IMG/VR virus record: IMGVR_UViG_2859827302_000008 | DNA: 30,612 nt | Source: a virus | Lineage: Duplodnaviria > Heunggongvirae > Uroviricota > Caudoviricetes | Strand: one strand, 5' to 3' | Shown here: positions 9,555-27,305 of the stretch, one piece after another | Layout: every line of letters starts with the position of its first letter | How positions within the stretch are numbered: the first letter of the stretch is position 1 | Notes under the pieces: generated by a model | Told to the model about the DNA's origin: nothing | The model's input: the letters and a program-made list of their open reading frames with translations, nothing else | Databases searched by the model: none | Translations under genes and position numbers: made by a program

Positions 9555-9564
9555 TTTTTTGCAT

Positions 9565-9661: not shown

Positions 9662-10696
9662 TTAAGTAGCTAGTTTATAACTATCAAATTTAACAATGTT
9701 CTCACTTACCAATTTATTTATTTCCATCATTCTTTTTTGTAACGGTATTAACTCGTTACGTACAAACACCAGGCTCGCCTTCTCCACATCCCCAAACCCC
9801 CCGACATTATTAGGCATAATCCCCATCATTTGCGGTGGCACACGATGCGCCGCCATCATGTCATCCCGGCTCACGTTCTTGATGTTCAGAAACTCATCCT
9901 TCGCCGCGACTTCTGACAACGGGATGATCTGAAGCCCGTCCTTTTTGCCGTTAGGCGAGTACATAAACAGATTGCGGAAGTTACCTGGTCCTTTGGCGCT
10001 TTTCATCGCATTGCGGAGGTTGTTCACATCCTCCTGGTTTTGCGCGGCATCGGTCATGTACATGATGAAGCCTGCATGACTGCCGTTAATGTAATACTAT
10101 CGGCGGAACAGCGTGGCGGACTCGTTGAGCAGGGCTGACGGAATGGCAGAAAGGTAACCTGGCAGGCCGTAGATCTCTTGGTTGATGTCCGGTTCCATCA
10201 GATGAAAGATGCTTCCTTTCGTGAACTGATACGGCTGCGTGGTCATGCCGTATTGCACAAACCAGTAGGTATCCAGGTCTAATCCGCGTCGGGTGTATTT
10301 TGCCAGAGCAGGCTCAAGAGCGATGACCTCTCCGAACCGGTTTGTGCGTTTCTCCAGGTAAGCGTTACCAAATACCAGATAATCCTGCACAAAACGTGAA
10401 AAAGCCTGCTGGCTGAGCAGCGGGTGAGGGATGTAGGTACTGATCAGAATGTTGCATTTCACCGCAATTGGTGAACTGTGATGCACGGCGGCGCGGAAGG
10501 TGCGCGCCAGTCCGTCAAAACTCACTGGCGGCTCATACCAGCGATCTGTCTGTACGCATTCCACATAGTCCAGTAGTTCACGGCGGTCCAGAACCGGAAC
10601 GGGATCGCCGAAGCTGAATGCTTCGGCTGAAGTCTGGTTTTTATGCTGGGTCTGTTTCGTCGCCGCAGCGCGGTTCTTCTTACTCTTTCCCATCAA
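9662..10696 (-). pseudogene. Q: P2-type portal protein gene Q with one in-frame amber codon (TAG at 10097..10099)
   Basis: Two minus-strand ORFs (10097..10696 and 9662..10063) share one frame and are separated only by the TAG plus 11 sense codons. Combined length (~344 codons) fits a P2-type portal. Confidence 0.85.
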
Positions 10697-12459
10697 AAAA
10701 TCTCCACAATATTGCTGGTATTGGCGGACTCGCCCTGCAGCGGTTCGTTAAACAGTGCGTGCATTGTTGCCCAGGCCAGATCGGCATGGCTGGCTTCTTC
10801 GCTGCGGCTGGCTTCATAGGTCGGGCGGTTGCCGCTGGCGGTGGTGGCGCGACGGATTGCCATGAATGACTGCGCAATGTCGGTGTGCCCGGCGTCAAAC
10901 TCAAGACGGCGGTGGCTGATAATGTCGTAGGCCTTGAGTACCAGGGCGTTTTTAACGTTGGGGTTGTAGACAAACTCCCGGACGGCAGGAAAAAACGCTT
11001 TCACGTTCTCGTAAACCCCGTGACCAACGCCGGTTGAGTCGATGCCGATATAGGTCACGTTGTACTGTTCAGTCAGTTTTTTGATGGCGTAAGCCTGGGC
11101 GCGAAAGTCCATTCCGCGCCACTGGTGACGCTCAAGAATGCGGAACTTACCGCCTGGCACGGCTGGCGGTGCCACCACCACGCATCCGGCGCTGTCGCCG
11201 TTCTGCGTACCTTTTGCCGGGTCATAACCGATCCACACTTCGCGCCAGCCAAACGGGCGCAGGGCCAGTGCATGAAAGTCGGTCCAGACTTCCCAGCTGT
11301 CCACCATGCACGCCTGCAATTCGCTGAGCGGGAACACGGACGCGAGATCGTCCACGAACTCGCACATCAGCAGGTTCTGGTATTCGTCAGGGCTGTACTC
11401 CATGCGCAACTGGTCAAGGTCGAACAGGTTACAGGCGCCGCGCACCGCATCTTCCACGGTGACTATCTGGCGGTATTGCCCGTCTGCGCACAGCAGGCCG
11501 GGGGCCAGATTGCTGTGGGACAGGTCGATGTCCACCTTGTCAGCTTTGTTGCGCCCACGGTTGAACAGCGCACCGGACCAGAACGGATAAGCACTGTGGG
11601 TCAGACTGGATGGTGTGGAAAAATAGGTCTGCCGCCATTTCTTGTGAATAGCCATACCAGAAGCCACTTTGCGTAGCTCCTGAAATTTCGGTATCCAGAA
11701 ATATTCATCCAGATACAGGTTACCGTGATAACTCTGGGCAGTGCGGGCATTGGTGCCGAGGAAATACAGTGTGGCCCCGTTGGGAAGCACCATCGGATCG
11801 CCTTTCAGCTCCACCTCCACTTCTTTGGCAAAGTCGATGATGTACTGTTTGAAGACGTGGGCCTGTGCCTTACTGGCAGAAAGGAAAATCTGGTTACGTC
11901 CGGTAAGCAGGGCGTCAATCAGGGCTTCACGGGCAAAATAGAAGGTCGCGCCGATCTGGCGTGACTTCAGCAGGTTGCGGATGCGGTTGGTTTTTCCGGC
12001 TTCCCACCAGTGGCGCTGGTAGTTGAACATGGAGGAATGGAAATTTTTTTCCAGCTTCTCAATCTGGTCATCGGTGAAAACATTCTTTTCAGGCTGACGG
12101 CGTGGGCCTTTGTTGCGGTTGGCGACGTTAGGGTTTAAGTCGGCTTCGTTGCCGCCATTGTTAAACTTGCCGATCCGCGCGTGGCGCTCAGACTGGCGCG
12201 CCAGCAGGTCAATATCTTTGAAATCTTTCCCTTCTTTGTGCTCCTTCATGATGAGCTGGCAGTAGCGTGCGGCGGTGGTGAGCTGCATCTGATCCAGAGG
12301 CCCATAGTCACCCCACTTGTCGCGTTTTTTTCAGCTGTAAACGGTTGCAACTTTCTCGCCCAGCATTTCAGCAATGCGGGCTACGCGGTATCCCTGAAAG
12401 TACAGCAGCATGGCCTGCCGACGGGGATCGAGATCTGCGGGTGTCAGTGTGGTGTTCAT
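10693..12459 (-). pseudogene. P: P2-type terminase large (ATPase) subunit gene P with in-frame opal codon (TGA at 12331..12333)
   Basis: ATG at 12459 opens MNTTLTPADLDPRRQAMLLYFQGYRVARIAEMLGEKVATVYS, then TGA, then the same frame continues into the 531-aa ORF 10693..12288. Confidence 0.85.
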
Positions 12460-12601: not shown

Positions 12602-13435
12602 ATGACAGTGAAAGCAAAGCGTTTTCGCATCGGGGTGGAAGGTGCCACCACCGACGGACGCGAAATCCAGCGTGAATGGCTGGAACAGATGGCAGCCAGC
12701 TATAACCCGGCGGTGTATACCGCGCTGATTAACCTTGAGCACATCAAGTCTTATCTGCCGGACAGCACCTTTAACCGCTACGGCAAGGTGACGGCGCTGT
12801 TTGCTGAAGAAATCACGGAAGGTCCGCTGGCAGGCAAGATGGCGCTGTATGCTGACGTTGAGCCAACGGAGTCCCTGGTGGAACTGGTGAAAAAAGGCCA
12901 GAAATTATTCACCTCTATGGAAGTCAGCCCGAAGTTCGCTGATACGGGCAAAGCCTACCTGGTCGGCCTGGCTGCCACTGATGACCCTGCCAGTCTGGGC
13001 ACTGAAATGCTGACATTCAGCGCCAGTGCAGCCCATAACCCGCTGGCAAACCGCAAGCAGAATCCCGCCAATCTCTTTACCGCCGCAGAGGAAACGGTGA
13101 TCGAACTGGAAGAAGTCCAGGACGACAAACCGTCCCTGTTTGCCCGCGTCACGGCGCTGTTTACCAAAAAAGAGCAGTCCGATGACGCCCGGTTCTCTGA
13201 TGTGCATAAGGCCGTGGAGCTGGTCGCCACTGAGCAGCAGAACCTGAGCGCACGCACCGAAAAATCCCTGTCTGAGCAGGAAGAACGCCTGTCTGAGCTG
13301 GAGACTGCCCTGCAGGCACAGCAAACCGCCTTTAACGAACTGGTGGACAAGCTGAGTCATGAAGACAGCCGCCAGGACTACCGCCAGCGTGCAACAGGCG
13401 GTAACGCCCCCGCTGACACTCTGACCAATTGCTGA
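12602..13435 (+). CDS. O: Capsid scaffolding protein (gpO-like)
   Basis: 277-aa ORF, first rightward late gene, acidic coiled-coil-rich translation; position and size match P2 gpO. Confidence 0.85.
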   Translation: MTVKAKRFRIGVEGATTDGREIQREWLEQMAASYNPAVYTALINLEHIKSYLPDSTFNRYGKVTALFAEEITEGPLAGKMALYADVEPTESLVELVKKGQKLFTSMEVSPKFADTGKAYLVGLAATDDPASLGTEMLTFSASAAHNPLANRKQNPANLFTAAEETVIELEEVQDDKPSLFARVTALFTKKEQSDDARFSDVHKAVELVATEQQNLSARTEKSLSEQEERLSELETALQAQQTAFNELVDKLSHEDSRQDYRQRATGGNAPADTLTNC

Positions 13436-13451
13436 TGGAGCACAAAACCTG

Positions 13452-14510
13452 ATGAAGAAGAATACCCGCTTTGCTTTTAACGCTTACCTGCAGCAACTGG
13501 CGCGTCTGAACGGTGTGGCAGTTGAAGAACTGTCCAGCAAGTTCACCGTAGAGCCGTCCGTGCAGCAGACGCTGGAAGACCAGATCCAGCAGTCCGCCGC
13601 TTTCCTGACTCTGATTAACGTCACGCCAGTGACTGAGCAGTCCGGTCAGCTGCTGGGGTTGGGAGTTGGCAGCACCATTGCCGGAACCACTGATACCACT
13701 GCGAAAGAGCGTGAACCTGTCGATCCGACGCTGATGGTCGATGTGGAATATAAATGCGAGCAGACCAACTTTGACACGGTGCTGACCTACGCGAAGCTGG
13801 ACCTGTGGGCGAAGTTTCAGGATTTTCAGGTGCGTATCCGTGACGCCATCGTGAAACGTCAGGCACTGGACCGCATCATGATCGGCTTTAATGGCGTGAA
13901 GCGTGCGAAAACCTCCAACCGTAGCGAAAACCCGCTGCTGCAGGATGTGAATAAAGGCTGGCTGCAGAAAATCCGTGAGGATGCACCGGATCACGTCATG
14001 GGCAGCACCACCACGGGCGGTGAAACCACACCGGGCGCAGTGAAAGTCGGGAAAGGTGGCGAATATGCCAACCTGGACGCCGTGGTGATGGATGCCGTCA
14101 ATGAGCTTATCGACGTGGTCTACCAGGACGATGACGATCTGGTGGTGATTTGCGGTCGTGAACTGCTGTCTGACAAGTATTTCCCGCTGGTCAACAAAGA
14201 GCAGGAAAACAGTGAAAAACTGGCTGCCGATATGATCATCAGTCAGAAACGCATGGGTGGCCTGCAGGCCGTGCGTGCGCCGTTCTTCCCGCCGAATGCG
14301 CTGCTGATCACCCGTCTGGATAACCTGTCCATCTACTGGCAGGAAGACACCCGCCGCCGTTCAGTTATCGACAACCCGAAACGTGACCGGATTGAAAACT
14401 TTGAATCCGTTAACGAAGCCTATGTGGTTGAGGACTACCGCTGCGCCGCACTGGTGGAAAACATCCAGATTAGTGATTTCAGCGCCGCCGCAGCCGAAAC
14501 CGGAGCGTAA
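13452..14510 (+). CDS. N: Major capsid protein (gpN-like)
   Basis: 352-aa ORF immediately after O; size and synteny match P2 gpN. Confidence 0.9.
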   Translation: MKKNTRFAFNAYLQQLARLNGVAVEELSSKFTVEPSVQQTLEDQIQQSAAFLTLINVTPVTEQSGQLLGLGVGSTIAGTTDTTAKEREPVDPTLMVDVEYKCEQTNFDTVLTYAKLDLWAKFQDFQVRIRDAIVKRQALDRIMIGFNGVKRAKTSNRSENPLLQDVNKGWLQKIREDAPDHVMGSTTTGGETTPGAVKVGKGGEYANLDAVVMDAVNELIDVVYQDDDDLVVICGRELLSDKYFPLVNKEQENSEKLAADMIISQKRMGGLQAVRAPFFPPNALLITRLDNLSIYWQEDTRRRSVIDNPKRDRIENFESVNEAYVVEDYRCAALVENIQISDFSAAAAETGA

Positions 14511-14513
14511 TCC

Positions 14514-15164
14514 ATGAGCCTGAGTCCCGCACGGCAGCATCGCCTGCGCGTTCAGGCTGAACAGGTCGCCCGTGAGGGTGGCAGTGTTCGCCACGCATCG
14601 GGCTATGACCTGATGCTGCTGCAACTGGCGGAAGACCGCCGCCGTCTCAAGGGCGTTCAGTCCACGGTCAAAAAAGCGGAAATCAAAGTGGAGCTGCTGC
14701 CGAAGTACGCCGCCTGGGCGGAGGGTGTCCTGGCTGCCGGAGGCGCTCAACAGGATGACGTGCTGATGTACGTGATGTTGTGGCGCATTGATGCCGGAGA
14801 TTATGCCGGGGCGCTGGAGATCTGGCGTCATGCCCTGCGTCATGGATGGGTGATGCCGCTGGGCAACCGCAACGTGCAGACCGTGCTGACAGAGGAAATG
14901 GCAGATGCAGCGCAGAGCGCAATGCTTGCCGCCACCGGCTTTGATGCCGATCTGTTGCTGCAGACGCTGGAGCTGACAGACGGTCTGGATATGCCGGACC
15001 AGTCACGGGCACGTCTGCATAAAGCGATTGGCGCGGTCCTGAGTGAAAGCAATCCGGCTTCCGCCCTTAATCATCTCAACCATGCGTTACAGCTCGATCC
15101 CCGCTGTGGCGTGAAAAAAGACAAACAGCAGCTGGAGCGCAGACTGCGCAATGACAGCCGCTGA
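14514..15164 (+). CDS. M: Terminase small (endonuclease) subunit (gpM-like)
   Basis: 216-aa ORF after N; synteny and similarity to P2 gpM. Confidence 0.8.
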   Translation: MSLSPARQHRLRVQAEQVAREGGSVRHASGYDLMLLQLAEDRRRLKGVQSTVKKAEIKVELLPKYAAWAEGVLAAGGAQQDDVLMYVMLWRIDAGDYAGALEIWRHALRHGWVMPLGNRNVQTVLTEEMADAAQSAMLAATGFDADLLLQTLELTDGLDMPDQSRARLHKAIGAVLSESNPASALNHLNHALQLDPRCGVKKDKQQLERRLRNDSR

Positions 15165-15259
15165 CAGAACGTGCCCCCGCGCACGGGCGGCACGGGGTGG
15201 CGAAAGGCACAGCCACATCAAAACCCCGTCCACCGCCCTTTATTTCAGGAGAAAGCAGC

Positions 15260-15706
15260 ATGAAGTTTGTTGCGCCAGAACAGGCACCGGAACAGGCGGA
15301 AATCATTAGAAATACGCCGTTCTGGCCTGATGTGGACCTGTCGGAGTTTCGCAGTGTCATGCGCACTGACGGCACGGTGACGCAGCCGCGTTTAAAGTAG
15401 GTTGCACTGTCGGCAATTTCGGAGGTTAACGCAGAGCTGTATGAGTTTCGCAGACGCCAGCAGATGCTGGGGTATGCGTCGGAACAGCTGGACGGGAAAA
15501 GTGAGCGCATTCAGCACTATTTCAACGCGGTTTACTGCTGGGCTCGCGCCATGCTCAACGAACGTTTCCAGGACTATGACGCCACGGCATCCGGTGCGAA
15601 GCGGGGCGAAGAACTGGCGGAAGCAAGCGGTGATTTGTGGCGTGACGCCCGCTGGGCCATCAGCCGGGTGCAGGACGCGCCGCACTGCACAGTGGAGCTT
15701 ATCTGA
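15260..15706 (+). pseudogene. L: Head completion protein gene L with in-frame amber codon (TAG at 15398..15400)
   Basis: ATG 15260 with AGGAG ribosome-binding site. Translation …NTPFWPDVDLSEFRSVMRTDGTVTQPRLK-stop-VALSAISEVNAELYEF… continues in the same frame to 15706 and resembles P2 gpL on both sides of the stop. Confidence 0.8.
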
Positions 15707-15909
15707 TGAAAGTGCGTGCGCATCAGTATGACACGGTGGACGCGCTTTGCTGGCGTCATTACGGGCGCACGCAGGGTGTCACGGAGCAGGTACTGAAGGC
15801 AAATCCGGGGCTTGCCGAATACGGCCCCTTTGTACCTCACGGGCTGCAGGTGGAGCTGCCGGACATTCCGACCACCACCACCGTGCAGACCGTCCAGCTA
15901 TGGGACTGA
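15706..15909 (+). CDS. X: Tail protein X (gpX-like)
   Basis: 67-aa ORF whose start overlaps the L stop (ATGA); size and position match P2 gpX. Confidence 0.75.
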   Translation: MKVRAHQYDTVDALCWRHYGRTQGVTEQVLKANPGLAEYGPFVPHGLQVELPDIPTTTTVQTVQLWD

Positions 15910-15912
15910 ATT

Positions 15913-16128
15913 ATGACGCTTGAGCGAATCAGCGCCTTTATCACGTATTGCATCGCCGTCGTGCTGGCCTGGCTGGGCGATTTGTCCATCAAGGATGCCT
16001 CAACGCTGGGCGGCCTGATGATTGGTGTGCTGATGCTGGCTATCAACTGGTACTACAAACACAAAGCCTACCAGCTTCTGCGCGACGGGCAGATCTCGCG
16101 GGAGGACTATGAATCCATCAATCGTTAA
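15913..16128 (+). CDS. Y: Holin, small two-TMD type (pinholin-like)
   Basis: 71-aa ORF with two hydrophobic segments and a charged C-terminus, immediately upstream of the endolysin. Confidence 0.65.
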   Translation: MTLERISAFITYCIAVVLAWLGDLSIKDASTLGGLMIGVLMLAINWYYKHKAYQLLRDGQISREDYESINR

Positions 16129-16621
16129 ACGCTGCCTTGTCGGGGCCGTGCTGGCTATTGCTGCCACGCTGCCGGGTTTTCAGCAGCTTCACACCTCCGT
16201 GGAGGGACTGAAACTGATTGCCGATTACGAAGGTTGTCGTCTGCAGCCGTATCAGTGCAGCGCGGGTGTCTGGACCGACGGTATTGGTAATACGTCGGGC
16301 GTCATTCCTGGCAAAACCATTACGGAGCGACAGGCAGCAGAAGGGCTGATCTCCAACGTGCTGCGTGTGGAGCGGGCGCTGGAAAGGTGTGTGAAGCAAC
16401 AGCCGCCGCAGAAGGTGTATGACGCTGCGGTGTCGTTTGCCTTCAACGTGGGTACGGGCAATGCCTGCAGTTCCACGCTGGTGAAATTGCTCAATCAGCG
16501 GCGCTGGGCGGATGCGTGCCGACAGTTGCCGCGCTGGGTTTATGTGAAAGGTGTTTTTAATCAGGGGCTGGATAACCGCCGTGCGCGGGAGATGGCCTGG
16601 TGTTTACAGGGAGCAAACTGA
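16109..16621 (+). CDS. K: Endolysin, T4-lysozyme-like muramidase with N-terminal signal-anchor-release (SAR)-like segment
   Basis: Translation has the E…D…T catalytic arrangement (…DYEGCRLQPYQCSAGVWTDGIGNT…), closely resembling the P1 Lyz-type SAR endolysin as recalled. N-terminal weakly hydrophobic stretch CLVGAVLAIAATLPGF. Confidence 0.85.
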   Translation: MNPSIVKRCLVGAVLAIAATLPGFQQLHTSVEGLKLIADYEGCRLQPYQCSAGVWTDGIGNTSGVIPGKTITERQAAEGLISNVLRVERALERCVKQQPPQKVYDAAVSFAFNVGTGNACSSTLVKLLNQRRWADACRQLPRWVYVKGVFNQGLDNRRAREMAWCLQGAN

Positions 16622-16622
16622 A

Positions 16623-17000
16623 ATGAAAAAGAAATTAATCAGCGGGCTGTTTCTGATGTTATGGATGGCGCTGTTAATCGCAGCAATAGTGTATCCGCAG
16701 GGGATTTTTCCGGTACTGGCAGCGTCCGGCGTTTGGGTAGCCTGTTTACTGACATGGGCGGTAATTCCGGTAGCACTGGCTTCGTTAATTAAGAATGGCC
16801 CGCTCTGGCAGGAGTTGAGGGCATCTTTACTGAAGACAATTACCCGAAAAGAAAACGTATTTATCAGCTGGGTGATACGATTGCTGATTGTCGTCAGTCT
16901 CGCCTGGACGGGGTGGGCCATTACCCTGGTCTTTTATCTGCTGACCGTTATTGCCTTCTGGATCACCCGTAATCAGATGGCGCAACAGGTAGCCGCATGA
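16623..17000 (+). CDS. lysA: LysA-like lysis-timing membrane protein
   Basis: 125-aa ORF from ATG 16623 with about four hydrophobic helices, in the lysis cassette. Confidence 0.6.
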   Translation: MKKKLISGLFLMLWMALLIAAIVYPQGIFPVLAASGVWVACLLTWAVIPVALASLIKNGPLWQELRASLLKTITRKENVFISWVIRLLIVVSLAWTGWAITLVFYLLTVIAFWITRNQMAQQVAA

Positions 17001-17425
17001 ACCGGTTGCTGCTGGTTGTGCTGGCGTTATTATTGGCGGCGCTGGGCTGGCAGACGTGGCGGCTGGCTGATGCCAGCCAGACCATCAGCACGCAGGCAGA
17101 CGAGCTGCAGAGCAAAAGCCAGGCACTGGCAAAGAGCAACAGCCAGCTTATCAGCCTGTCCATTCTGACTGAAACCAATAACCGGGAGCAGGCGCGGCTC
17201 TATGCCGAAGCAGAACAGACCAGTGTACTGCTGAGACAACGACAACGCCGGATTGAGGAACTGAAACGTGAGAACGAGGATTTACGTCGCTGGGCTGATA
17301 CTCCTTTGCCTGCTGACATTATCCGGCTGCGGGAACGTCCGGCACTCACCGGAGGTGCAGCTTACCGTCAGTGGTTGTCCGCGAGTGACGCCGTGTCGGC
17401 TGGAGCAGGCAGCGCCGCGCACTAA
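16997..17425 (+). CDS. lysB: LysB, Rz-like inner-membrane spanin
   Basis: 142-aa ORF with N-terminal TMD and coiled-coil-rich periplasmic part. Confidence 0.7.
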   Translation: MNRLLLVVLALLLAALGWQTWRLADASQTISTQADELQSKSQALAKSNSQLISLSILTETNNREQARLYAEAEQTSVLLRQRQRRIEELKRENEDLRRWADTPLPADIIRLRERPALTGGAAYRQWLSASDAVSAGAGSAAH

Positions 17426-17558
17426 CGGTGATCTGAATGCGTTGCTGGATGAAACGGAGGCCGCCTGGGCGGTCTGTGCAGACAAAGTGGACATGATTAT
17501 TGCGTGTCAGGAGCGAAATAGTGAACAAACCACAATCCCTGCGCCACGCCCTCAATAA
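17268..17558 (+). CDS. lysC: LysC, Rz1-like outer-membrane lipoprotein spanin (overlapping lysB in another frame)
   Basis: Signal peptide with lipobox LTLSGC, proline-rich mature part, overlapping the 3' end of lysB. Confidence 0.6.
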   Translation: MRTRIYVAGLILLCLLTLSGCGNVRHSPEVQLTVSGCPRVTPCRLEQAAPRTNGDLNALLDETEAAWAVCADKVDMIIACQERNSEQTTIPAPRPQ

Positions 17559-17952
17559 AGCAGTGCCTTATGTCCGTAATAACCCGGACAAACTGCATCT
17601 GTTTGTGGATAACGGTTCGCTGGTTGCCTCCGGGGCTAGCTCCATGTCATGGGAGTACCGCTACACCCTGAACGTGGTGATTGAAGATTTCAGCGGCGAC
17701 CAGAATCTGCTGATGGCCCCGGTTTTGCTGTGGCTGCGGGATAACCAGCCCGATGCGATCAATAACCCGGCGTTACGGGAAAAGCTATTCACCTTTGAGG
17801 TGGATATTCTGCGCAACGATGTCTGTGATATCAGCCTTAACCTGCAACTGACGGAGCGTGTGCTGGTCAGCACTGACGGCAGTGTGTCGAACGTTGAAGC
17901 GGTAGCGGAACCTGATGAACCTGAAGAAATGTGGACGGTGAAACGTGGCTGA
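17500..17952 (+). CDS. R: Tail completion protein R
   Basis: 150-aa ORF; size, position and similarity match P2 gpR. Confidence 0.75.
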   Translation: MRVRSEIVNKPQSLRHALNKAVPYVRNNPDKLHLFVDNGSLVASGASSMSWEYRYTLNVVIEDFSGDQNLLMAPVLLWLRDNQPDAINNPALREKLFTFEVDILRNDVCDISLNLQLTERVLVSTDGSVSNVEAVAEPDEPEEMWTVKRG

Positions 17953-18346
17953 ATTGCAGAAGGTGGACGACTGGCTGAGTGCATTATTGGCGAATCTGGA
18001 GCCAGCCGCAAGAAGCCGCATGATGCGCCAGCTGGCGCAGGAACTGCGCCGGACACAGCAGCAGAACATCAGGATGCAGCGCAATCCAGATGGCAGCAGT
18101 TATGAGCCGCGCAGGGTAACAGCACGCAGCAAAAAGGGGCGCATCAAACGTCAGATGTTTACAAAGCTGCGCACCACAAAATACCTGAAAACTGCAGCCA
18201 GCGCCGATTCTGCCAGCGTACAGTTTGAAGGTAGGGTGCAGCGCATTGCCCGTATTCACCATTACGGCTTGAGTGATCGCGTCAGTCGAAAAGGTATTTA
18301 TACCATCTATGCGAAAAGGCAGTTATTAGGTTTTAATGTCCGGTAA
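17945..18346 (+). pseudogene. S: Tail completion protein gene S, 3' end replaced by the IS1 terminus
   Basis: GTG-initiated ORF. The last codons and the stop (TAA 18344..18346) lie at the junction with and inside the IS1 inverted repeat that starts at 18342. Confidence 0.7.
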
Positions 18347-18396
18347 TGCTGCCAACTTACTGATTTAGTGTATGATGGTGATTTTAAGGTGCTTGC

Positions 18397-18672
18397 GTGG
18401 CTTCCATTTCCATCAGATGTCCTTCCTGCTCCGCTATTGAAGGCGTGGTGCGTAACGGCAAAAGCACTGCCGGACATCAGCGCTATCTCTGCTCTCATTG
18501 CCGTAAAACATGGCAATTACAGTTCACTTACACCGCCTCTCAGCCCGGTACGCACCAGAAAATCATTGATATGGCCATGAATGGCGTCGGATGTCGCGCC
18601 AGTGCACGCATTATGGGCGTTGGCCTCAACACGGTTTTACGTCACTTAAAAAACTCAGGCCGCAGTCGGTAA
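18397..18672 (+). CDS. insA: IS1 InsA
   Basis: 91-aa [26 protein letters not shown]… with zinc-finger and HTH regions, characteristic of IS1 InsA. Confidence 0.9.
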
Positions 18673-19094
18673 CCTCGCGCATACAACCGGGCAGTGATGT
18701 GATTGTCTGCGCTGAAATGGACGAACAGTGGGGCTACGTCGGTGCTAAATCACGTCAGCGCTGGCTGTTTTACGCGTATGACAGGATACGGAGGACGGTT
18801 GTGGCGCACGTCTTCGGTGAACGCACTCTGGCCACACTGGAGCGTCTTCTGAGCCTGCTGTCGGCCTTTGAGGTCGTGGTATGGATGACGGATGGCTGGC
18901 CGCTGTATGAATCACGCCTGAAGGGAAAGCTGCACGTTATCAGCAAGCGTTACACTCAGCGCATTGAGCGACATAATCTGAATCTGAGACAACATCTGGC
19001 AAGGCTGGGACGGAAGTCACTGTCGTTCTCAAAATCGGTGGAGCTGCATGACAAGGTCATCGGGCATTATCTGAACATAAAACACTATCAGTAA
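18591..19094 (+). CDS. insB: IS1 InsB reading frame (expressed as InsAB' transposase by -1 frameshift)
   Basis: 167-aa ORF overlapping insA in the -1 frame, ending 15 bp before the right inverted repeat. Confidence 0.85.
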
Positions 19095-19109
19095 GTTGGC
19101 AGCATTACC

Positions 19110-19624
19110 ATGCAGCCCTCACAATATAGTTAAAAGCGACATTTCGTGGGCGTGTTTCATTCGCACCTGCAGGTTTAGTCGTTGCCGCAACAACACCACC
19201 CTCTGTAATAGCCGGGTTGGGAATTGGGTAATTATCGAAGTCAATGGCCGGAGACAGGGGCGTGATTTGTTTTAAAATCGTGGTGCCTGTAAAACTTTCC
19301 AGAGTCTGGTCGTTAGTTCGTGAAGTCCAGATTCCCCAATAGTGGTTATGACTGACAATCGCACCGTCCTGAAGCGTTAATAATCCCCTTCCGTTATCCA
19401 CTCCACGTCCGTCATCCCAGCCACGAATAAACTCACCGCGTAAATCAGGCAATTTATTTGTCGGGTAAGCCTTTGCCAGTTCCGGGTATTCTTCAGCAGA
19501 AAAAGCCGCACCATTGCATTTCAGCCAGCCTGTCGGCGGAGTGGCTGAAGGCCACGGAACAGGCACACCAACAGGTAATGCAGAGCCTTCTCCCAAACCA
19601 ACGTTTAAGAAAATGCAGAGATAA
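19110..19624 (-). pseudogene. Orphan tail-fibre variable C-terminal segment (Sv'-type, inverted orientation), lacking its constant 5' partner
   Basis: Minus-strand translation …PVPWPSATPPTGWLKCNGAAFSAEEYPELAKAYP…ETRPRNVAFNYIVRAAW is typical of invertible-segment tail-fibre tips. The 5' end begins within the gix-like site and the 3' end abuts IS1, which supplies the stop codon. Confidence 0.65.
19599..19624. promoter_or_regulatory. gix/pix-like DNA-invertase crossover site
   Basis: TTCTCCCAAACCAACGTTTAAGAAAA versus recalled gix consensus TTATCCAAAACCTCGGTTTACAGGAA. It lies inside the tail-fibre reading frame, next to the invertase gene. Confidence 0.5.
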
Positions 19625-19668
19625 TGGCTAACTGGCATCATCTCCGGTTTTTATTCAGGGGATTGATC

Positions 19669-20235
19669 ATGCTTATTGGCTATGTACGCGTGTCAACAAA
19701 TGACCAGAACACCGATTTGCAACGTAATGCACTGAACTGCGCGGGATGTGAGCGGATTTTTGAGGATAAAATCAGTGGCACTAAGCCCGACAGACCGGGG
19801 CTTAAAAAACTGCTCAGGACACTATCGGCAGGAGACACGCTGGTTGTCTGGAAGCTGGACAGACTGGGACGCAGTATGCGGCATCTTGTTACGCTGATAG
19901 AAGAGTTGCGCCAGCGTGGTGTGAATTTCCGAAGCCTGACTGACAGTATTGATACCAGTACCCCAATGGGCCGTTTCTTTTTTCACGTCATGGGGGCTCT
20001 GGCTGAAATGGAACGTGAACTGATAGTTGAACGTACCAGAGCAGGGCTGGCTGCAGCTCGTGCCAAAGGCAGAGTAGGTGGACTCCGTCCTAAGTTGACC
20101 ACCGAACAGTGGGCACAGATTGGACGTTTACTCGAGGCCGGAGAATCAAGACAGCGTATTGCACTGATTTTTGATGTGGGCGTTTCTACCATTTATAGAA
20201 AATTTCCGGCGAATGAGAGCAATGAATCGCCCTGA
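19669..20235 (+). CDS. pin: Serine-recombinase DNA invertase (Pin/Gin/Hin/Cin family)
   Basis: Translation MLIGYVRVSTNDQNTDLQRNAL…VVWKLDRLGRSM…GALAEMERELI… carries the catalytic Ser in YVRVST and a C-terminal HTH. Start taken as ATG 19669. Confidence 0.9.
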   Translation: MLIGYVRVSTNDQNTDLQRNALNCAGCERIFEDKISGTKPDRPGLKKLLRTLSAGDTLVVWKLDRLGRSMRHLVTLIEELRQRGVNFRSLTDSIDTSTPMGRFFFHVMGALAEMERELIVERTRAGLAAARAKGRVGGLRPKLTTEQWAQIGRLLEAGESRQRIALIFDVGVSTIYRKFPANESNESP

Positions 20236-20283
20236 GTCAGTATTATTTTGATTTTTCCTGTAAGCGGACAAATACCGTCATTT

Positions 20284-20301
20284 TGTGTGAATAACGACAC
20301 A
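20284..20301. promoter_or_regulatory. Ogr/Delta-type late-promoter dyad TGT-N12-ACA upstream of FI
   Basis: TGTgtgaataacgacACA about 75 bp upstream of the FI start. Confidence 0.4.
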
Positions 20302-20377
20302 ACTGCGCTTAGCTGTTTGTCAGGCACAATCACTTCAACATAGGGCGAAGCCTAATCCAATCAGGAGGTTCGCCACT

Positions 20378-21550
20378 ATGGCTCAGGATTACCACCACGG
20401 GGTGCGCGTTGTTGAAGTCAACGAAGGCACCCGATCCATTACCACGGTGAGCACCGCCATCGTGGGTATGGTCTGCACGGGCGATGATGCCGATGCAAAA
20501 ATGTTTCCTCTTAATAAACCTGTGCTGATCACTGATGTGCTGACCGCCAGCGGTAAAGCGGGTGAGTCTGGCACGCTGGCCCGTTCGCTGGATGCCATCG
20601 CTGACCAGGCAAAACCCGTGACCGTTGTTGTGCGTGTGCCGCAGGGTGAAACGGAAGAAGAAACCACAACCAATATCATTGGCGCAGTGACCGCCGAGGG
20701 TAAAAAAACAGGTATGAAAGCCCTGTTATCTGCCCAGTCACAGCTCGGCGTTAAACCGCGCATTCTCGGCGTGCCAGGTCACGACACGAAGGCGGTAGCT
20801 ACTGAGTTGCTGAGCGTGGCGCAAAGCCTGCGTGGATTTGCTTACCTGTCAGCGTATGGTTGCAAGACGGTGCAGGAAGCAATCACTTACCGTGAAAACT
20901 TCAGTCAGCGTGAAGGAATGCTGATCTGGCCCGACTTTACTGGCTGGGACACGGTGCTGAATGCCGAAGCAACGGCTTATGCCACCGCCCGTGCGCTCGG
21001 TCTGCGCGCTAAAATTGATGAGCAGACCGGATGGCACAAAAGCCTGTCCAACGTGGGCGTGAACGGTGTCACCGGAATTTCTGCTGATGTGTTCTGGGAT
21101 CTGCAGAACCCGGCAACCGATGCAGGTCTGCTTAACCAGAACGATATCACCACGCTTATCCGCAAAGACGGTTTCCGCTTCTGGGGTTCCCGCTGTCTGA
21201 GCGATGATCCGCTCTTTGCCTTCGAAAACTACACCCGCACGGCGCAGGTGCTGATGGACACGATGGCAGAAGCGCACATGTGGGCGGTGGACAAACCGCT
21301 GAACCCGTCGCTGGCCCGCGACATTATCGAAGGTATCCGCGCCAAAATGCGTAGCCTGGTCAGTCAGGGCTATCTCATTGGTGGTGATTGCTGGCTGGAC
21401 GAGTCGGTGAACGATAAAGACACGCTGAAAGCCGGGAAACTCACCATCGATTACGACTACACGCCAGTGCCGCCACTTGAAAACCTGATGCTGCGTCAGC
21501 GCATCACCGATCAGTACCTGGTGAATTTCTCCAGCCAGGTCAGCGCGTAA
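20378..21550 (+). CDS. FI: Tail sheath protein (gpFI-like)
   Basis: 390-aa ORF with AGGAGG ribosome-binding site; size and position match P2 FI. Confidence 0.9.
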
Positions 21551-21559
21551 GGGGACAAC

Positions 21560-22075
21560 ATGGCTTTACCACGCAAATTAAAACACCTGAACCTGTTTAA
21601 CGACGGGAACAACTGGCAGGGGATCGTTGAGTCGCTGACGCTGCCGAAATTCACCCGCAAATATGAGAAGTATCGCGGCGGCGGTATGCCCGGAGCGGTG
21701 GATGTGGATCTGGGACTGGATGACAGTGCACTGGATACAGAATTTTCCATTGGTGGTACTGAACTGCTGCTGTTTAAGCAGATGGGCAAAGCCACGGTGG
21801 ATGGCATCCAGCTGCGCTTTACCGGCTCTATTCAGCGTGATGATACCGGGGAAGTGCAGGCCGTGGAGCTTGTGGTGCGTGGACGTCACAAAGAAGTAGA
21901 TTCCGGCGAGTGGAAGACGGGCGAAAGCAACACTACCAAAGTGACCAGTACCAACAGCTACGCGAAGCTGACCATCAATGGTGAGGTGCTCTATGAAGTG
22001 GACCTGATCAACATGGTGGAAATTGTGGACGGTGTGGACCTGATGGAAGCGCACCGCAACGCCCTCGGCCTCTGA
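21560..22075 (+). CDS. FII: Tail tube protein (gpFII-like)
   Basis: 171-aa ORF directly after FI; matches P2 FII. Confidence 0.9.
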   Translation: MALPRKLKHLNLFNDGNNWQGIVESLTLPKFTRKYEKYRGGGMPGAVDVDLGLDDSALDTEFSIGGTELLLFKQMGKATVDGIQLRFTGSIQRDDTGEVQAVELVVRGRHKEVDSGEWKTGESNTTKVTSTNSYAKLTINGEVLYEVDLINMVEIVDGVDLMEAHRNALGL

Positions 22076-22129
22076 TGTATCTGAACGGCGCGGAATGCCG
22101 CGCCAGAACCTAATTTACAGGACAACAAA

Positions 22130-22432
22130 ATGAGCGATAAGCAGACTGAAAAGACCATTCAACTGGATACTCCCATCATGCGCGGTAAAACAGAAATTAC
22201 CGAAATTGTGTTGCGTAAACCGCAGTCCGGTGCGCTGCGCGGCACACGCCTGCAGGCCATTATGGATATGGATGTGAACGCGATGATGACCGTGATCCCC
22301 CGCATCTCCAGTCCGGCACTGACTGCACAGGAAATTGCAGAGATGGACCCGGCAGATCTCACTGCCATGTCGGTTGAGGTTGTCACTTTTTTGTTGAAGA
22401 AGTCGGTGCTTGCCGGTTTACCGACAGCCTGA
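22130..22432 (+). CDS. E: Tail assembly chaperone E
   Basis: 100-aa ORF between the tube and tape-measure genes, containing the slippery heptamer near its 3' end. Confidence 0.75.
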   Translation: MSDKQTEKTIQLDTPIMRGKTEITEIVLRKPQSGALRGTRLQAIMDMDVNAMMTVIPRISSPALTAQEIAEMDPADLTAMSVEVVTFLLKKSVLAGLPTA

Positions 22433-22566
22433 CGGTTGACGATCTGGTGGCTGATATCGCCACCATCTTTCACTGGCCGCCATCCGTTACTGACGTTATG
22501 CCGCTGACCGAAGTGCTGGAATGGCGGGATAAAGCGATTCAGAGAAGCGGGGCCAGCCATGAGTGA
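22130..22566 (+). CDS. E': E+E' product made by programmed -1 frameshift at T_TTT_TTG (22387..22393)
   Basis: Slippery heptamer is in X_XXY_YYZ phase with the E frame. The -1 frame stays open to TGA 22564..22566 and encodes …SLTVDDLVADIATIFHWPPS…, overlapping the T start. Confidence 0.6.
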
Positions 22567-25500
22567 CAATAACCTGCGTCTGCAGGTGATTCTTAATGCG
22601 GTTGACAAACTCACCCGCCCATTTCGATCCGCGCAGGCCAGTTCAAGAGAACTGGCTGCTGCTGTCAAAAAATCCCGCGATGCAATAAAGCAGCTTGATC
22701 AGGCCGGGAGCAGTCTGGACAGCTTCCGAAAGCTGCAGGCAGAAAATCAGAAATTAGGCGACAGGCTGAACTATGCCCGCCAGCGTGCAAATTTGCTCAG
22801 TCAGGAACTGGGAGCGATGGGGCCGCCTTCGCAACGTCAGGTTGTTGCTCTGGGCCGTCAACGGCTGGCTGTTCAGCGCCTGGAAGAACGCCAGAAAAAG
22901 CTGCAGCAGCAGACGGCGCTTGTGCGTGCAGAACTTTATCGTGCTGGTATTTCAGCTAATGATGGCGCCAGTGCGACGGCCCGCATTACCCGTGAAACGA
23001 TGCGTTATAACAGGCAGCTTTCTGAGCAGGAAGCGAGGTTACGACGTGTCGGGGAGCAACAGCGAAAAATGCACGCCGCCCGGGGGGCTTACGCCAGGCG
23101 TCTTGAGGTAAGGGATCGTATTGCAGGTGCCGGAGCCACCACCACGGCTGCAGGGCTGGCAATGGGCGCACCAGTGATGGCGGCAGTAAAAAGCTATACC
23201 AGCATGGAAGATGCCATGAAAGGTGTGGCAAAGCAGGTCAATGGTCTGCGTGACGATAATGGCAACCGCACTGCGCGTTTTTACGAAATGCAGGGTGCCA
23301 TCAAGGCTGCCAGCGAACAGTTGCCGATGGAAAACGGTGCTGTGGACTTCGCCGCACTGGTTGAAGGTGGTGCGCGCATGAACGTCGCAAACCCTGACGA
23401 CAGCTGGGAAGACCAGAAACGTGACCTGCTGGCCTTCGCCAGCACGGCGGCAAAGGCGGCAACAGCCTTTGAACTGCCAGCGGATGAACTGTCAGAAAGT
23501 CTGGGGAAAATCGCCCAGCTCTACAAAATCCCTACCCGCAATATTGAGCAGCTCGGTGATGCGCTGAACTATCTGGATGATAACGCCATGTCGAAAGGGG
23601 CGGACATCATTGATGTCATGCAACGCCTGGGCGGTGTGGCTGACCGTCTGGATTATCGTAAAGCGGCGGCGCTGGGTTCCACCTTCCTGACACTCGGCGC
23701 TGCGCCTGAGGTTGCAGCCAGTGCAGCAAACGCGATGGTGCGTGAATTGTCCATTGCCACCATGCAAAGCAAGAGTTTCTTTGAAGGGATGAATCTGCTG
23801 AAACTCAATCCAGAAGTGATTGAAAAGCAGATGACGAAGGATGCGATGGGAACTATCCAGCGGGTGCTGGAGAAGGTGAATGCGCTGCCACAGGATAAGC
23901 GCCTGTCTGCCATGACCATGTTGTTTGGTAAAGAGTTTGGCGATGACGCAGCGAAACTGGCAAACAACCTGCCGGAACTTCAGCGCCAGTTAAAACTGAC
24001 TGCGGGCAATGATGCGCTCGGTTCCATGCAGAAAGAATCCGACATCAACAAGGATTCACTTTCTGCTCAGTGGTTGCTGGTCAAAACCGGAGCACAGAAC
24101 ACCTTCAGCAGCCTGGGGGAAACGCTGCGCCAGCCGCTGATGGATATTCTGTACACGGTGAAAAGCGTCACGGGGGCGTTGCGTCGCTGGGTGGAAGCTA
24201 ACCCGGAACTGACGGGCACTCTGATGAAAGTAGCCGCTGTGGTAGCTGCCGTTACCGTGGGCCTCGGCACCTTAGCGGTGGCGCTGGCTGCAGTGCTGGG
24301 GCCGCTGGCAGTCATCCGTCTGGGATTCTCTGTGCTGGGTATCAAAACGTTACCTTCCGTTACGGCAGCAGTAACCCGAACCAGCAACGCGTTGTCCTGG
24401 CTGGCTGGCGCACCACTGGCACTGCTGCGACGCGGGCTTGCTTCATCGGGCAACGCTGCAGGTTTACTTACTGCGCCGTTGTCGTCTTTGCGCCGCACGG
24501 CATCACTGACGGGAAATGTCCTGAAAACTGTAGCAGGTGCGCCGGTTGCACTTTTGCGGTCTGGATTATCCGGTTTACGTGCGGTTGCTGTGATGTTTAT
24601 GAATCCACTGGCGGTACTACGCGGCGGACTGGCTGCCACAGGCACGGTGCTGCGTATGCTCGCATCCGGTCCACTGGCGATGCTGCGCGTTGCCCTGTAT
24701 GCCGTCTCTGGTCTGTTAGGTGCTCTGCTCAGTCTGATAGGTCTTGTGGTTACTGCACTGGCGGGTGTGGCGCTGGTTGTCTGGAAATACTGGCAGCCCA
24801 TCACCACATTTCTCGGTGGCGTGGTGGAAGGATTCAAAGCGGCGGCAGGTCCTGTCAGTGCCGCGTTCGAACCGCTTAAGCCTGTGTTCCAGTGGATTGG
24901 CGACAAAGTACAGGCGCTGTGGGGCTGGTTTACTGATCTGCTGACGCCCGTTAAGTCGACCTCTGCCGAACTGCAGAGTGCAGCGGCAATGGGGCGACGA
25001 TTCGGGGAGGCTCTGGCGGAAGGGCTGAATATGGTCATGCATCCGCTGGACTCCCTGAAATCCGGCGTTTCCTGGTTGCTGGAGAAACTTGGCATTGTCA
25101 GTAAAGAGGCCGCAAAGGCGAAACTGCCGGAAAGCGTGACGCGTCAGCAACCTGCGACGGTGAATGCAGACGGTAAAGTGATGATGCCATCGGGTGGTTT
25201 TCCGTCATGGGGATATGGCTTTGCGGGGATGTATGACAGCGGCGGGTATATCCCGCGCGGGCAGTTTGGCATCGTCGGTGAAAACGGGCCGGAAATTGTT
25301 AACGGCCCGGCAAATGTGACCAGCCGGAGAAATACAGCTGCACTGGCTGCCGTTGTTGCCGGAATGATGGGTGTTGCTGCTACGCCAGCAGAGCTTCCAC
25401 CGTTGCACCCTTTGGCACTTCCCGCGAAAGGCGGTGAAGCGATGGTGAGTCGTGCAGCCACTGTGCCGCCCGTTCAACGGATTGAGGCACCGATGCAGAT

Positions 25501-25636
25501 CATCATTCAAACGCAGCCAGGACAAAGTGCGCAGGATATTGCGCGGGAGGTGGCCCGCCAGCTTGATGAACGTGAACGCAGGCTGAAGGCAAAAGCCAGG
25601 AGTAACTACAGCGATCAGGGGGGATACGACGCATGA
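22559..25636 (+). CDS. T: Tail tape-measure protein (gpT-like)
   Basis: 1025-aa ORF; coiled-coil N-terminal half, Ala/Leu/Gly-rich repetitive hydrophobic middle, located after E/E'. Confidence 0.9.
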   Translation: MSDNNLRLQVILNAVDKLTRPFRSAQASSRELAAAVKKSRDAIKQLDQAGSSLDSFRKLQAENQKLGDRLNYARQRANLLSQELGAMGPPSQRQVVALGRQRLAVQRLEERQKKLQQQTALVRAELYRAGISANDGASATARITRETMRYNRQLSEQEARLRRVGEQQRKMHAARGAYARRLEVRDRIAGAGATTTAAGLAMGAPVMAAVKSYTSMEDAMKGVAKQVNGLRDDNGNRTARFYEMQGAIKAASEQLPMENGAVDFAALVEGGARMNVANPDDSWEDQKRDLLAFASTAAKAATAFELPADELSESLGKIAQLYKIPTRNIEQLGDALNYLDDNAMSKGADIIDVMQRLGGVADRLDYRKAAALGSTFLTLGAAPEVAASAANAMVRELSIATMQSKSFFEGMNLLKLNPEVIEKQMTKDAMGTIQRVLEKVNALPQDKRLSAMTMLFGKEFGDDAAKLANNLPELQRQLKLTAGNDALGSMQKESDINKDSLSAQWLLVKTGAQNTFSSLGETLRQPLMDILYTVKSVTGALRRWVEANPELTGTLMKVAAVVAAVTVGLGTLAVALAAVLGPLAVIRLGFSVLGIKTLPSVTAAVTRTSNALSWLAGAPLALLRRGLASSGNAAGLLTAPLSSLRRTASLTGNVLKTVAGAPVALLRSGLSGLRAVAVMFMNPLAVLRGGLAATGTVLRMLASGPLAMLRVALYAVSGLLGALLSLIGLVVTALAGVALVVWKYWQPITTFLGGVVEGFKAAAGPVSAAFEPLKPVFQWIGDKVQALWGWFTDLLTPVKSTSAELQSAAAMGRRFGEALAEGLNMVMHPLDSLKSGVSWLLEKLGIVSKEAAKAKLPESVTRQQPATVNADGKVMMPSGGFPSWGYGFAGMYDSGGYIPRGQFGIVGENGPEIVNGPANVTSRRNTAALAAVVAGMMGVAATPAELPPLHPLALPAKGGEAMVSRAATVPPVQRIEAPMQIIIQTQPGQSAQDIAREVARQLDERERRLKAKARSNYSDQGGYDA

Positions 25637-26118
25637 TGATGGTGCTGGGATTGTACGTGTTTATGCTGCGCACCGTGCCGTATCAGGAGCTGCAGTATCA
25701 ACGCAGCTGGCGACATGCGGCAAACAGCCGGGTAAACCGACGCCCGTCAACGCAGTTTCTGGGACCGGACAACGACATGCTGACGCTTTCTGGTGTTCTT
25801 ATGCCGGAGGTAACGGGCGGCAGGCTGTCGTTGCTGGCTCTGGAGCAGATGGCAGAACAGGGAAAAGCATGGCCCCTGATTGAAGGCAGCGGCACGATTT
25901 ACGGCATGTATGTGATTGAGGGACTGAATCAGACTAAAACGGAGTTTTTCCGCGACGGTATGCCGCGCCGGATTGAGTTCACCCTGTCGCTAAAACGCGT
26001 GGATGAATCCCTGTCCGATATGTTCGGTGATCTCAGTGCGCAACTGAATAATCTGCAGGGAACGGCAACATCTGCCTTAAGCGATATCAGTAAAACGGTG
26101 GGAGGGCTGCTGTCGTGA
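25633..26118 (+). CDS. U: Tail protein U
   Basis: 161-aa ORF coupled to T (ATGA overlap); size and position match P2 gpU. Confidence 0.8.
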   Translation: MMMVLGLYVFMLRTVPYQELQYQRSWRHAANSRVNRRPSTQFLGPDNDMLTLSGVLMPEVTGGRLSLLALEQMAEQGKAWPLIEGSGTIYGMYVIEGLNQTKTEFFRDGMPRRIEFTLSLKRVDESLSDMFGDLSAQLNNLQGTATSALSDISKTVGGLLS

Positions 26119-27215
26119 ATTTCAGCTCTGAACTGCTTAACAAAGGCAACAAAACTCCGGCATTCAGCATCAGTATTGAAGGCAGGGATATCACCACTGT
26201 GCTGGACAACCGCCTGATGGGGCTGACGCTGACGGATAACCGGGGCTTTGAGGCGGACTAGCTTGATCTGGAGCTGGACGACGCCGATGGAAAAATCGTG
26301 CTGCCGCGCCGTGGGGCTGTCATTACGCTGGCGCTGGGCTGGAAGGGACAGCCGCTTTTCCCGAAAGGGGCATTCACGGTGGACGAGATTGAACACACTG
26401 GCGCACCGGATCGCCTGACTATCCGGGCGCGAAGTGCTGATTTTCGTGAAACGCTGAATACCCGCCGTGAAAAGTCGTGGCACAAGACCACCGTTGGGGA
26501 AGTGGTGAAGGAAATAGCTGCGCGGCACAAACTGAAGATGGCATTGGGTGAAGACTTGTCGGATAAACTCGTGGAGCATATAGACCAGACTAATGAGAGT
26601 GACGGCAGTTTTTTGATGCGGCTGGCGCGCCAGTACGGTGCTATTGCGTCGGTGAAAAATGGCAATCTGTTATTCATCCGGCAGGGGCAGGGTAAAAGCG
26701 CCAGCGGTAAACCACTACCGGTGATCACTATCACACGCAAGGACGGCGACAGTCACCGCTTTACCCTGGCAGATCGCGGAGCTTACACGGGCGTCATTGC
26801 CAGCTGGTTGCATACCCGCGAACCCGCGAAGAAAGAAAGCACCACGGTGAAGCGTAAGCGCAGGACTAAGAAGCAGAAGAAAGAGCCGGAAGCGAAGCAG
26901 GGCGATTACCTGGTGGGTACGGATGAAAACGTGCTGGTACTTAATCGCACTTATGCCAACCGGAGCAACGCCGAACGGGCAGCGAAAATGCAGTGGGAAC
27001 GCCTGCAACGCGGCGTTGCATCATTCTCGCTACAACTGGCGGAAGGGCGGGCAGATCTCTACACAGAAATGCCTGTGAAGGTCAGTGGCTTTAAACAGCC
27101 GATAGATGATGTGGAATGGACCATTACGACTCTGACGCATACTGTCAGCCCGGATAACGGTTTTACGACCAGTCTGGAGCTTGAAGTGAGGATTGATGAT
27201 TTCGAAATGGAATGA
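26115..27215 (+). pseudogene. D: Tail protein gene D with in-frame amber codon (TAG at 26259..26261)
   Basis: GTG 26115 opens VNFSSELLNKGNKTPAFSISIEGRDITTVLDNRLMGLTLTDNRGFEAD, then TAG, then the same frame continues LDLELDDADG… through the 305-aa ORF to 27215. Confidence 0.8.
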
Positions 27216-27305
27216 TTCTTCGCAATGGAGAACTTTTAAGTTTGCAAAATGGAATAATGCGGTATCATTATTGTGAATTTAGCAAAAATGGGGAGAACTC
27301 GAAAA

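Follow-up and report, generated by a model that had tools for sequence, protein, structure and literature searches.

Organization of the prophage remnant

The subject of this analysis is a joint in a P2-like prophage carried on IMG/VR virus record IMGVR_UViG_2859827302_000008 (Caudoviricetes), a stretch of 30,612 nucleotides hereafter called the window, in which the tail-completion gene S runs directly into a copy of the insertion sequence (IS) IS1 and, past it, into the minus-strand C-terminal tip of a tail fibre. Further to the right follow a serine DNA invertase gene and the intact tail sheath gene FI (20378-21550, + strand; recovered by tblastn across residues 1-390 with 98.5% identity and no stops), the first gene of the right-hand tail block that has been kept. 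Taking the P2 late order as Q P, then O N M L X holin lysozyme lysA lysB/C R S ... FI FII E E' T U D ogr, every late gene that was queried with reference proteins by tblastn was recovered in this order (E' was left out of the query), and the Pfam families at sister loci match the P2-like late-gene order as well.

The window is 100% identical to CP026828.1 across 20,537 bp and 99.8-99.93% identical to other assemblies, the proteins of which are named [Shigella dysenteriae] or MULTISPECIES [Shigella]. Two intact prophages served as references: that of Escherichia coli HD12481 (locus L004; NZ_CP143395.1), located beside ybjL, and that of E. coli UPEC-245U (locus L006; NZ_CP049845.1). The right side of the remnant continues into ybjL, ybjM and grxA, the same neighbourhood as in HD12481. 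A P2-like prophage would be expected to carry V, W, J and I together with H and G between S and FI, and an earlier note on this DNA had claimed that all six are gone; this was borne out by tblastn, which recovered none of them in the window. On its gene content, the element is a defective remnant of the P2-like (Peduoviridae-type) family and not a full member.

The left junction and the IS1 element

Gene S is truncated (17945-18341, + strand, open reading frame to 18346), its product gpS still matching Pfam Phage_tail_S with an E-value of 3.4e-36 over profile positions 2-132 of 148. It retains 397 of 444 nt, that is 132 codons and one base, the last 15 codons being gone, and its reading frame now stops at a TAA (18344-18346) contributed by the left end of the IS1. 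The nearest S allele is that of UPEC-245U, which aligns by tblastn across residues 1-132 of 147 with 98.5% identity; the S protein of HD12481, used as a query, matches over residues 1-131. The left breakpoint lies inside S, window position 18341 being equivalent to position 9192 of the UPEC-245U locus. There, the intact gene passes from AATGTCC into AATCTATTGAG or, in a longer view, from GGTTTTAATGTCC into AATCTATTGAGTTAATTG, and continues for 15 more codons.

The IS1 is intact and 768 bp long (18342-19109, + strand), as read directly from the sequence, with both 23-nt ends identical. Its left terminal inverted repeat is GGTAATGCTGCCAACTTACTGAT (18342-18364, + strand), and the right one (19087-19109, - strand) matches it at 23 of 23 positions. 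Both transposition genes are in place: insA (18397-18672, + strand; Pfam Zn_ribbon_InsA 3.9e-19 and HTH_Tnp_IS1 4.6e-30) and insB' (18591-19094, + strand; Pfam DDE_Tnp_IS1 1.3e-74), the latter encoding the DDE transposase domain and being read after a -1 frameshift at the A6C slip motif (AAAAAAC) located at 18648; gene calling in sister assemblies yields a 232-aa InsAB' fusion. Size, terminal repeats, the insA/insB' frames with the A6C motif and the IS1-type DDE domain all place the element in the IS1 family, and it is 95.6% identical to an IS1 in an E. coli relative (strain 64, locus L003) and 90.5% identical to the IS1A of another (E. coli G5, locus L002).

No target duplication of 6-12 bp was found around this IS1: the flanks read GGTTTTAATGTCC to the left and ATGCAGCCCTCA to the right, and the adjoining 9-mers, TTAATGTCC and ATGCAGCCC respectively, are unrelated. 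The same test gave clean 8-9 bp duplications in two positive controls, GCGCCGCAG in E. coli G5 and GTTTTTTT in strain 64. Thus the claim that S is followed directly by an IS1 that has no target duplication holds to the base, and the interval 18342-19624 singled out earlier consists of IS1 and tip. The absent 8-9 bp duplication marks a rearrangement and is no argument against the identity of the element as IS1. It is nevertheless weak evidence of a deletion when taken alone, because about half of the IS1 copies sampled from this lineage have none: among ten other copies of one same-lineage genome (loci L031-L040), four have clean 8-9 bp duplications, one has a duplication with one mismatch, four have none and one is truncated. 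It is the comparison with intact relatives, given below, that proves the deletion.

The right repeat carries the left-type GCTGCC, a minority variant, in place of GACTCC. We considered whether this could be a scar of the deletion event and rejected the idea: one of the ten other sampled copies, and only one, carries the same variant. The IS1 copies of the lineage differ at 3-6 positions in 768 bp.

A second IS1, inverted with respect to the first, begins at 30304 and runs off the end of the window (30304-30612); it lies inside grxA, its junction corresponding to positions 22194 and 22195 of the HD12481 locus. Its right repeat begins GGTAATGACTCC, as compared with GGTAATGCTGCC in the first copy, and the two copies show 4 differences in 309 shared bases, 3 of them within the repeat.

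The right junction: tail-fibre cassette and invertible segment

To the right of the IS1 lies a tail-fibre C-terminal cassette with a Collar domain (19110-19641, - strand), a silent alternate fibre end in which all 177 codons are kept. The right breakpoint, window position 19110, is equivalent to position 11001 of the HD12481 locus and is the first base of the cassette stop codon, hence the open reading frame (19641-19105, - strand, 178 aa) now ends in ...RAAW*, with the tryptophan and the stop supplied by IS1. The cassette is 99.4% identical across 177 residues to a silent "phage tail protein" of HD12481, the gene for which is likewise a minus-strand one, flanked by a tail-fibre assembly gene and the invertase gene. 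It is moreover identical at 163 of 164 positions to the C-terminus (residues 350-513) of the 513-aa fibre that UPEC-245U expresses.

A 26-bp invertase crossover site, TTCTCCCAAACCAACGTTTAAGAAAA, survives at 19588-19613 (+ strand) and corresponds to one arm of the inverted-repeat pair found in both relatives. It differs at one position from what we take to be the hix/gix/cix consensus. The paired sites of the relatives (26-27 nt) lie at 9599-9625 and 11478-11504 in HD12481 and at 13801-13826 and 15655-15680 in UPEC-245U, in each case with one arm in H, at the boundary between its constant and variable parts, and the other adjoining the invertase gene. The segment of the cassette past the crossover site (19110-19587) is the portion that is joined to H upon inversion. 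Next to the site, the invertase gene (19669-20235, + strand) is intact and encodes a 188-aa serine DNA invertase of the Gin/Cin/Hin/Pin type, 97.3% identical to that of HD12481; with an N-terminal resolvase domain (Pfam Resolvase 2.8e-53) and a C-terminal helix-turn-helix (HTH_7 1.3e-13) it has the domain architecture of a Din-family recombinase.

Between their crossover sites the HD12481 and UPEC-245U prophages match in reverse-complement orientation (1,365 bp, 93.3% identity), and the DNA outside the sites aligns directly. Both orientations of the switch, with alternative C-termini on a constant fibre N-terminus, are thus seen in the relatives and only there, and inversion has been observed experimentally in P2-like prophages of enteropathogenic E. 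coli (EPEC; PMC4272514). Since relatives carry the same segment in both orientations, the tip owes its minus-strand position to an invertible segment of the Gin/Cin type, of which it is the native silent cassette, and not to the IS1 event. The earlier description of an orphan inverted tip calls for this refinement: a minus-strand fibre C-terminal segment is indeed the only fibre material left, and its orientation is the native one of a silent cassette.

A second crossover site was not found in the window, which therefore does not hold the two sites of a Din-family switch; the partner lay in the deleted part of H. Because this partner, the constant part of the fibre and both assembly genes have been deleted, what remains is predicted to be a non-working remnant of the switch, with an invertase that has no paired substrate in the window.

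Extent of the missing block

In HD12481, R and S are followed by a cargo gene on the minus strand, then by V, W, J, I and H, by two assembly genes of which the second is on the minus strand, and finally by the silent tip (also minus strand), the invertase gene and FI. The two breakpoints map between positions 9192 and 9193 of the UPEC-245U locus and between 11000 and 11001 of the HD12481 locus. As the earlier note had proposed, the lost interval could be measured against intact P2-like prophages: it corresponds to 5,781 bp (5220-11000) of the HD12481 locus, a continuous interval in that intact prophage, or to ~5,984 bp when computed on UPEC-245U, the cargo gene of which is larger. Its content comprises the 3' end of S, the S-V cargo gene, V, W, J, I, H with the expressed variable end, and both tail-fibre assembly genes. 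When HD12481 proteins were used as tblastn queries, S (residues 1-131), the tip and the invertase did match in the window; nothing in its 30.6 kb matched the products of the cargo gene, V, W, J, I and H or either assembly protein.

The two sides of the IS1 have the same orientation, are collinear and keep the native P2 order, with a single gene complement in which no gene is duplicated. The divergence from HD12481 is equal on both sides, with 96.85% identity over 13141-18294 and 96.74% over 19110-30303. A rearrangement in which the baseplate and fibre genes lie elsewhere, in an order that reveals an inversion, had been named as the finding that would overturn a deletion; no such arrangement occurs in the window. 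The loss starts precisely at the terminus of an intact IS, and in relatives the lost DNA is contiguous, as in an adjacent deletion. Taken together, these data leave very little doubt that the structure is an IS1-bounded deletion within one prophage. Neither flank showed microhomology to the reference sequence at the opposite breakpoint, and the retained 40-nt flanks are moderately AT-rich (A+T 62% and 58%).

Other IS1 insertions were found in this region in E. coli relatives. Independent simple insertions, with duplications, lie just downstream of S at 9592-10359 of the strain 64 locus and in a further search hit (H43), and in a tail-fibre assembly gene of E. coli G5 (6001-6768); this P2-like prophage region seems to have been repeatedly struck by IS1. 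Deletions free of any IS were seen too. In EC16 (locus L001, 8903-9949) a fibre gene that has no C-terminus is fused directly to the invertase gene, and in SHP24 (locus L005, 5380-6252) lysB is joined to a fibre gene that has no N-terminus, R, S and the baseplate genes being gone. Loss of the baseplate and fibre block has occurred several times independently.

Conservation of the joint among Shigella assemblies

The 40-mers across both junctions are exact in all the related Shigella assemblies that span them, and an identical S'-IS1-tip layout (S' being the truncated S) is present in the long-contig or complete assemblies CP026828.1, CP026840.1, CP026842.1, CP026825.1, CP026823.1, CP026805.1, PSSQ01000001.1, UYIT01000009.1 and AKNG01000051.1. 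Because both junctions are identical in all related Shigella assemblies examined while other lesions vary by strain, the IS1 deletion is old and fixed in this Shigella lineage, and decay has been ongoing since. The S'-IS1-tip junction is hence a stable lineage marker that could serve for typing.

Looked up as exact proteins, the truncated S was found in 267 contigs, the tip ending in the IS1-derived tryptophan (tip-W) in 46 contigs, and the invertase in 362 blocks of the collection. The gap between 267 and 46 might suggest a hidden lineage with another right junction. We rejected this possibility: short-read assemblies break exactly at the IS1 located at 18342, with 13-kb contigs that end at S' and many others that start at window position 19111, which makes the tip gene partial and accounts for the lower count of the tip-W protein.

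Origin of the joint

The reading that we favour, by a modest preference, is that the joint was made by intramolecular replicative transposition of IS1, that is, by an adjacent deletion, an event for which IS1 is reportedly well known from work attributed to Reif and Saedler in 1975 and to Turlan and Chandler in 1995. IS1 would first have inserted at one of the two present junctions, and one of its ends would then have attacked a target a few kb away on the same molecule, the DNA in between being lost as a circle bearing a second IS1 copy; the general mechanism has been described (PMC9330008). The expected product is a single IS1 with precise ends, one old flank and one new flank, and no target duplication. 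At the time of the event the invertible segment would have been oriented with the cassette silent on the minus strand, beside the invertase gene. A deletion endpoint exactly at the boundary between cassette and assembly gene would then let the cassette, one crossover site and the invertase gene survive, with inversion and expression of the cassette as part of a fibre both abolished. What inclines us to this reading over recombination is parsimony, since it calls for one insertion and one intramolecular event instead of two insertions and one recombination; the data themselves do not decide.

Several points weigh against this preference. The final structure fits equally well a RecA-dependent recombination of two direct IS1 copies, and thus the earlier recognition of an adjacent-deletion signature holds in that the structure is the expected one, and fails in that such a recombination leaves the same trace. 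E. coli relatives have IS1 near both positions (past S in strain 64 and in hit H43, and in the assembly gene of E. coli G5), and the genome holds hundreds of copies, so that a pair of them within this interval is quite conceivable. A progenitor with IS1 at a single junction was not found among 5,426 complete E. coli genomes, by exact-protein look-ups, or in GTDB species representatives and JGI metagenomes, the coverage of Shigella in these searches being less than exhaustive. The look-ups used the S', tip-W and invertase proteins, and the pattern scans of GTDB and JGI targeted the two hypothetical progenitor junctions, all with a negative outcome; against the 5,426 E. coli genomes the junction queries gave partial matches only, with IS1 at other positions downstream of S. 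Finally, the search for the missing block covered the window and loci of ~20 kb of the source genome, and a block relocated elsewhere in the chromosome would lie outside its direct reach.

The strongest competitor is accordingly that two direct and independently inserted IS1 copies, one in the 3' end of S and the other at the boundary between silent cassette and assembly gene, recombined via RecA, deleting 5.8-6 kb and leaving a hybrid IS1. This is a serious possibility, to which we give somewhat less credence than to transposition. It yields exactly what is seen, namely precise ends and unrelated 9-mers, which would be the outer halves of two duplications, and it agrees with the independent IS1 insertions near both positions in E. 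coli relatives (strain 64, H43 and E. coli G5) and with the state of the lineage itself, where IS1 is very dense and four of ten other copies have no duplication, a sign that IS1 rearrangements are common. Many deletions in Shigella have moreover been ascribed to recombination between homologous IS copies (PMC7373316). It requires, nonetheless, three events instead of two, and in the searched sets neither of the single insertions, nor the two together, turned up in any genome. A hybrid IS1 would not be recognisable as such, because the copies are too alike, with 3-6 differences in 768 bp.

A different kind of explanation holds that the genes were displaced and not lost, the joint being either a chimera of two P2-like prophages (one contributing A to S, the other the invertase gene to ogr) or the breakpoint of a chromosomal inversion or translocation. 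The genome is indeed heavily rearranged: to the left of the remnant CP026828.1 carries rutR-putA-putP-efeU, which on the K-12 map lie at a distance of ~185 kb from ybjL and are oriented the other way, and a second, inverted IS1 sits in grxA at 30304. We consider displacement very unlikely all the same, as both sides of the first IS1 have the same orientation, the native P2 order and one gene complement between them, and are equally divergent (96.85% and 96.74% identity) from one intact prophage that occupies this ybjL site too; the second IS1 has an inner flank (CGCGTTCAT) that resembles neither flank of the first, and no baseplate or fibre homologue was found in the 30.6 kb. An inversion between the two IS1 copies of the window was also considered and is unsupported within it, as the lost genes were not found there and the flanks show no sign of exchange.

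An assembly artefact, in which repeat collapse at IS1 joined non-adjacent contigs, would be in keeping with the high copy number of this repeat and with the breaks that short-read assemblies of the lineage show exactly here, and is effectively refuted by the recurrence of both 40-nt junctions and of the S'-IS1-tip layout in many independent long-contig or complete assemblies.

Consequences and other lesions of the remnant

By established P2 genetics, the tail genes V, W, J, I, H and G are all essential, and the loss of this block is therefore expected to prevent the formation of infectious particles. Lacking baseplate and fibre, the prophage would be unable to build tails; it has since acquired further nonsense mutations. 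The deletion had been called decisive against infectious particles; it would be sufficient, and it is one of several lesions, next to stops in the portal, terminase, L and D genes, to the IS66-family element that interrupts A and to an IS3-family element that severs the early end.

In-frame stops common to all assemblies of the lineage interrupt the portal gene Q at codon 199 (10099-10097) and the head-completion gene L at codon 47 (15398-15400), while those in the large terminase gene P at codon 43 (12333-12331) and in D at codon 49 (26259-26261) are present only in CP026828.1. Other strains show different breaks in T, FI or the invertase gene, some of which may be sequencing errors. Replication gene A (1299-2840 and 5422-6162) is interrupted by the IS66-family element (2823-5265), which is bounded by terminal repeats beginning GTAAGCG (2823-2845 and 5243-5265) and carries tnpA (2895-3296), tnpB (3293-3640) and tnpC (3689-5227). 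At the left end of the window an IS3-family transposase gene with an rve domain (1-654) abuts a 5'-truncated dam-type methylase gene (697-1302; Pfam profile 87-253). The int/C/cox end is separated from the remnant, probably by a large IS-mediated inversion, as suggested by the presence of rutR-putA-putP-efeU, and not of the ybjL neighbourhood, on the left side in CP026828.1.

Between the remnant of gene A and the portal gene lie a gene for a DinI-like protein (6442-6747; Pfam DinI 1.3e-22) and, beside the portal gene, an intact cargo pair (7040-9554) encoding a 549-aa AAA_21 / PtuA-like ATPase and a 293-aa protein, which match A (3.2e-55) and B (1.2e-33) of the PADLOC candidate defence system PDC-M01. 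One may ask whether the remnant has been kept for a reason, either an orphan invertase that acts in trans on crossover sites in other prophage remnants, or pairs its single site with a distant one and so drives chromosomal inversions, or retention of the PDC-M01-type pair and the lysis cassette. We regard this as very unlikely, even though the invertase protein is exactly conserved in hundreds of assemblies; with 99.8-100% identity over the entire region in this lineage, such conservation says nothing about selection.

This P2-like element of Shigella is thus to be seen as a dead remnant that makes no tails, with little significance beyond annotation. For the latter purpose, the "phage tail protein" annotated on one side of IS1 corresponds to a silent cassette and the "virion morphogenesis protein" on the other to a truncated gene, each ending in IS1-derived codons. 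More generally, a missing target duplication is common in IS-rich genomes, and a deletion needs proof against intact relatives.

Comparison with known systems

The S'-IS1-tip junction itself was not described in the literature searched. The case is a new instance of a well-known event, IS-driven prophage decay in Shigella. Classical IS1 adjacent deletions, such as those of the E. coli gal region, resemble it in that the deletion starts from an intact IS1 terminus, a few kb are lost, and one IS1 remains with no duplication; they differ in that, for the window, the event is deduced solely from what it left behind in a natural genome. The IS-driven decay of Shigella genomes (Hawkey et al. 2020, PMC7373316) is similar in its richness in IS1, in the genes disrupted or deleted by IS elements, and in the combination of pseudogenes shared by a lineage with strain-specific decay, although the main text of that study makes no mention of the word "prophage".

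With regard to the switch, Mu G/Gin, P1 C/Cin, e14 P/PinE and the P2-like prophages of EPEC E2348/69 (PMC4272514) all have a serine invertase gene beside a segment bounded by inverted 26-bp sites, as do the relatives analysed here. In Din-family switches the outer site lies at the boundary between the constant and variable parts of the fibre, and there are two C-terminal cassettes, each with its own assembly gene, whereas the window keeps only the invertase gene, the invertase-proximal site and one cassette.

Among deposited phages, the closest one to span tip and invertase gene together is the P2-like Escherichia phage pro483 (NC_028943 / KR073661; query 1-960, 90.9% identity), which has a tail-collar fibre and a DNA invertase. 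CP019275.1 covers more of the query with a higher identity than pro483, but without the first 300 bases of the tip. The genome of pro483 is that of a complete 29-kb phage, in contrast to the window, where the baseplate and fibre block is missing and IS elements and nonsense codons are present. The intact prophages of HD12481 and UPEC-245U, at the same or similar sites, have the same gene order as the window, with ~96-98% identity. HD12481 shares with the window the junction on the ybjL side and the silent orientation of the cassette, and UPEC-245U shares the variant 3' end of S, with its cassette expressed. Both differ from the window in having a full-length S of 147 aa, the cargo gene, V, W, J, I, H and the two assembly genes, with no IS1 at either position.

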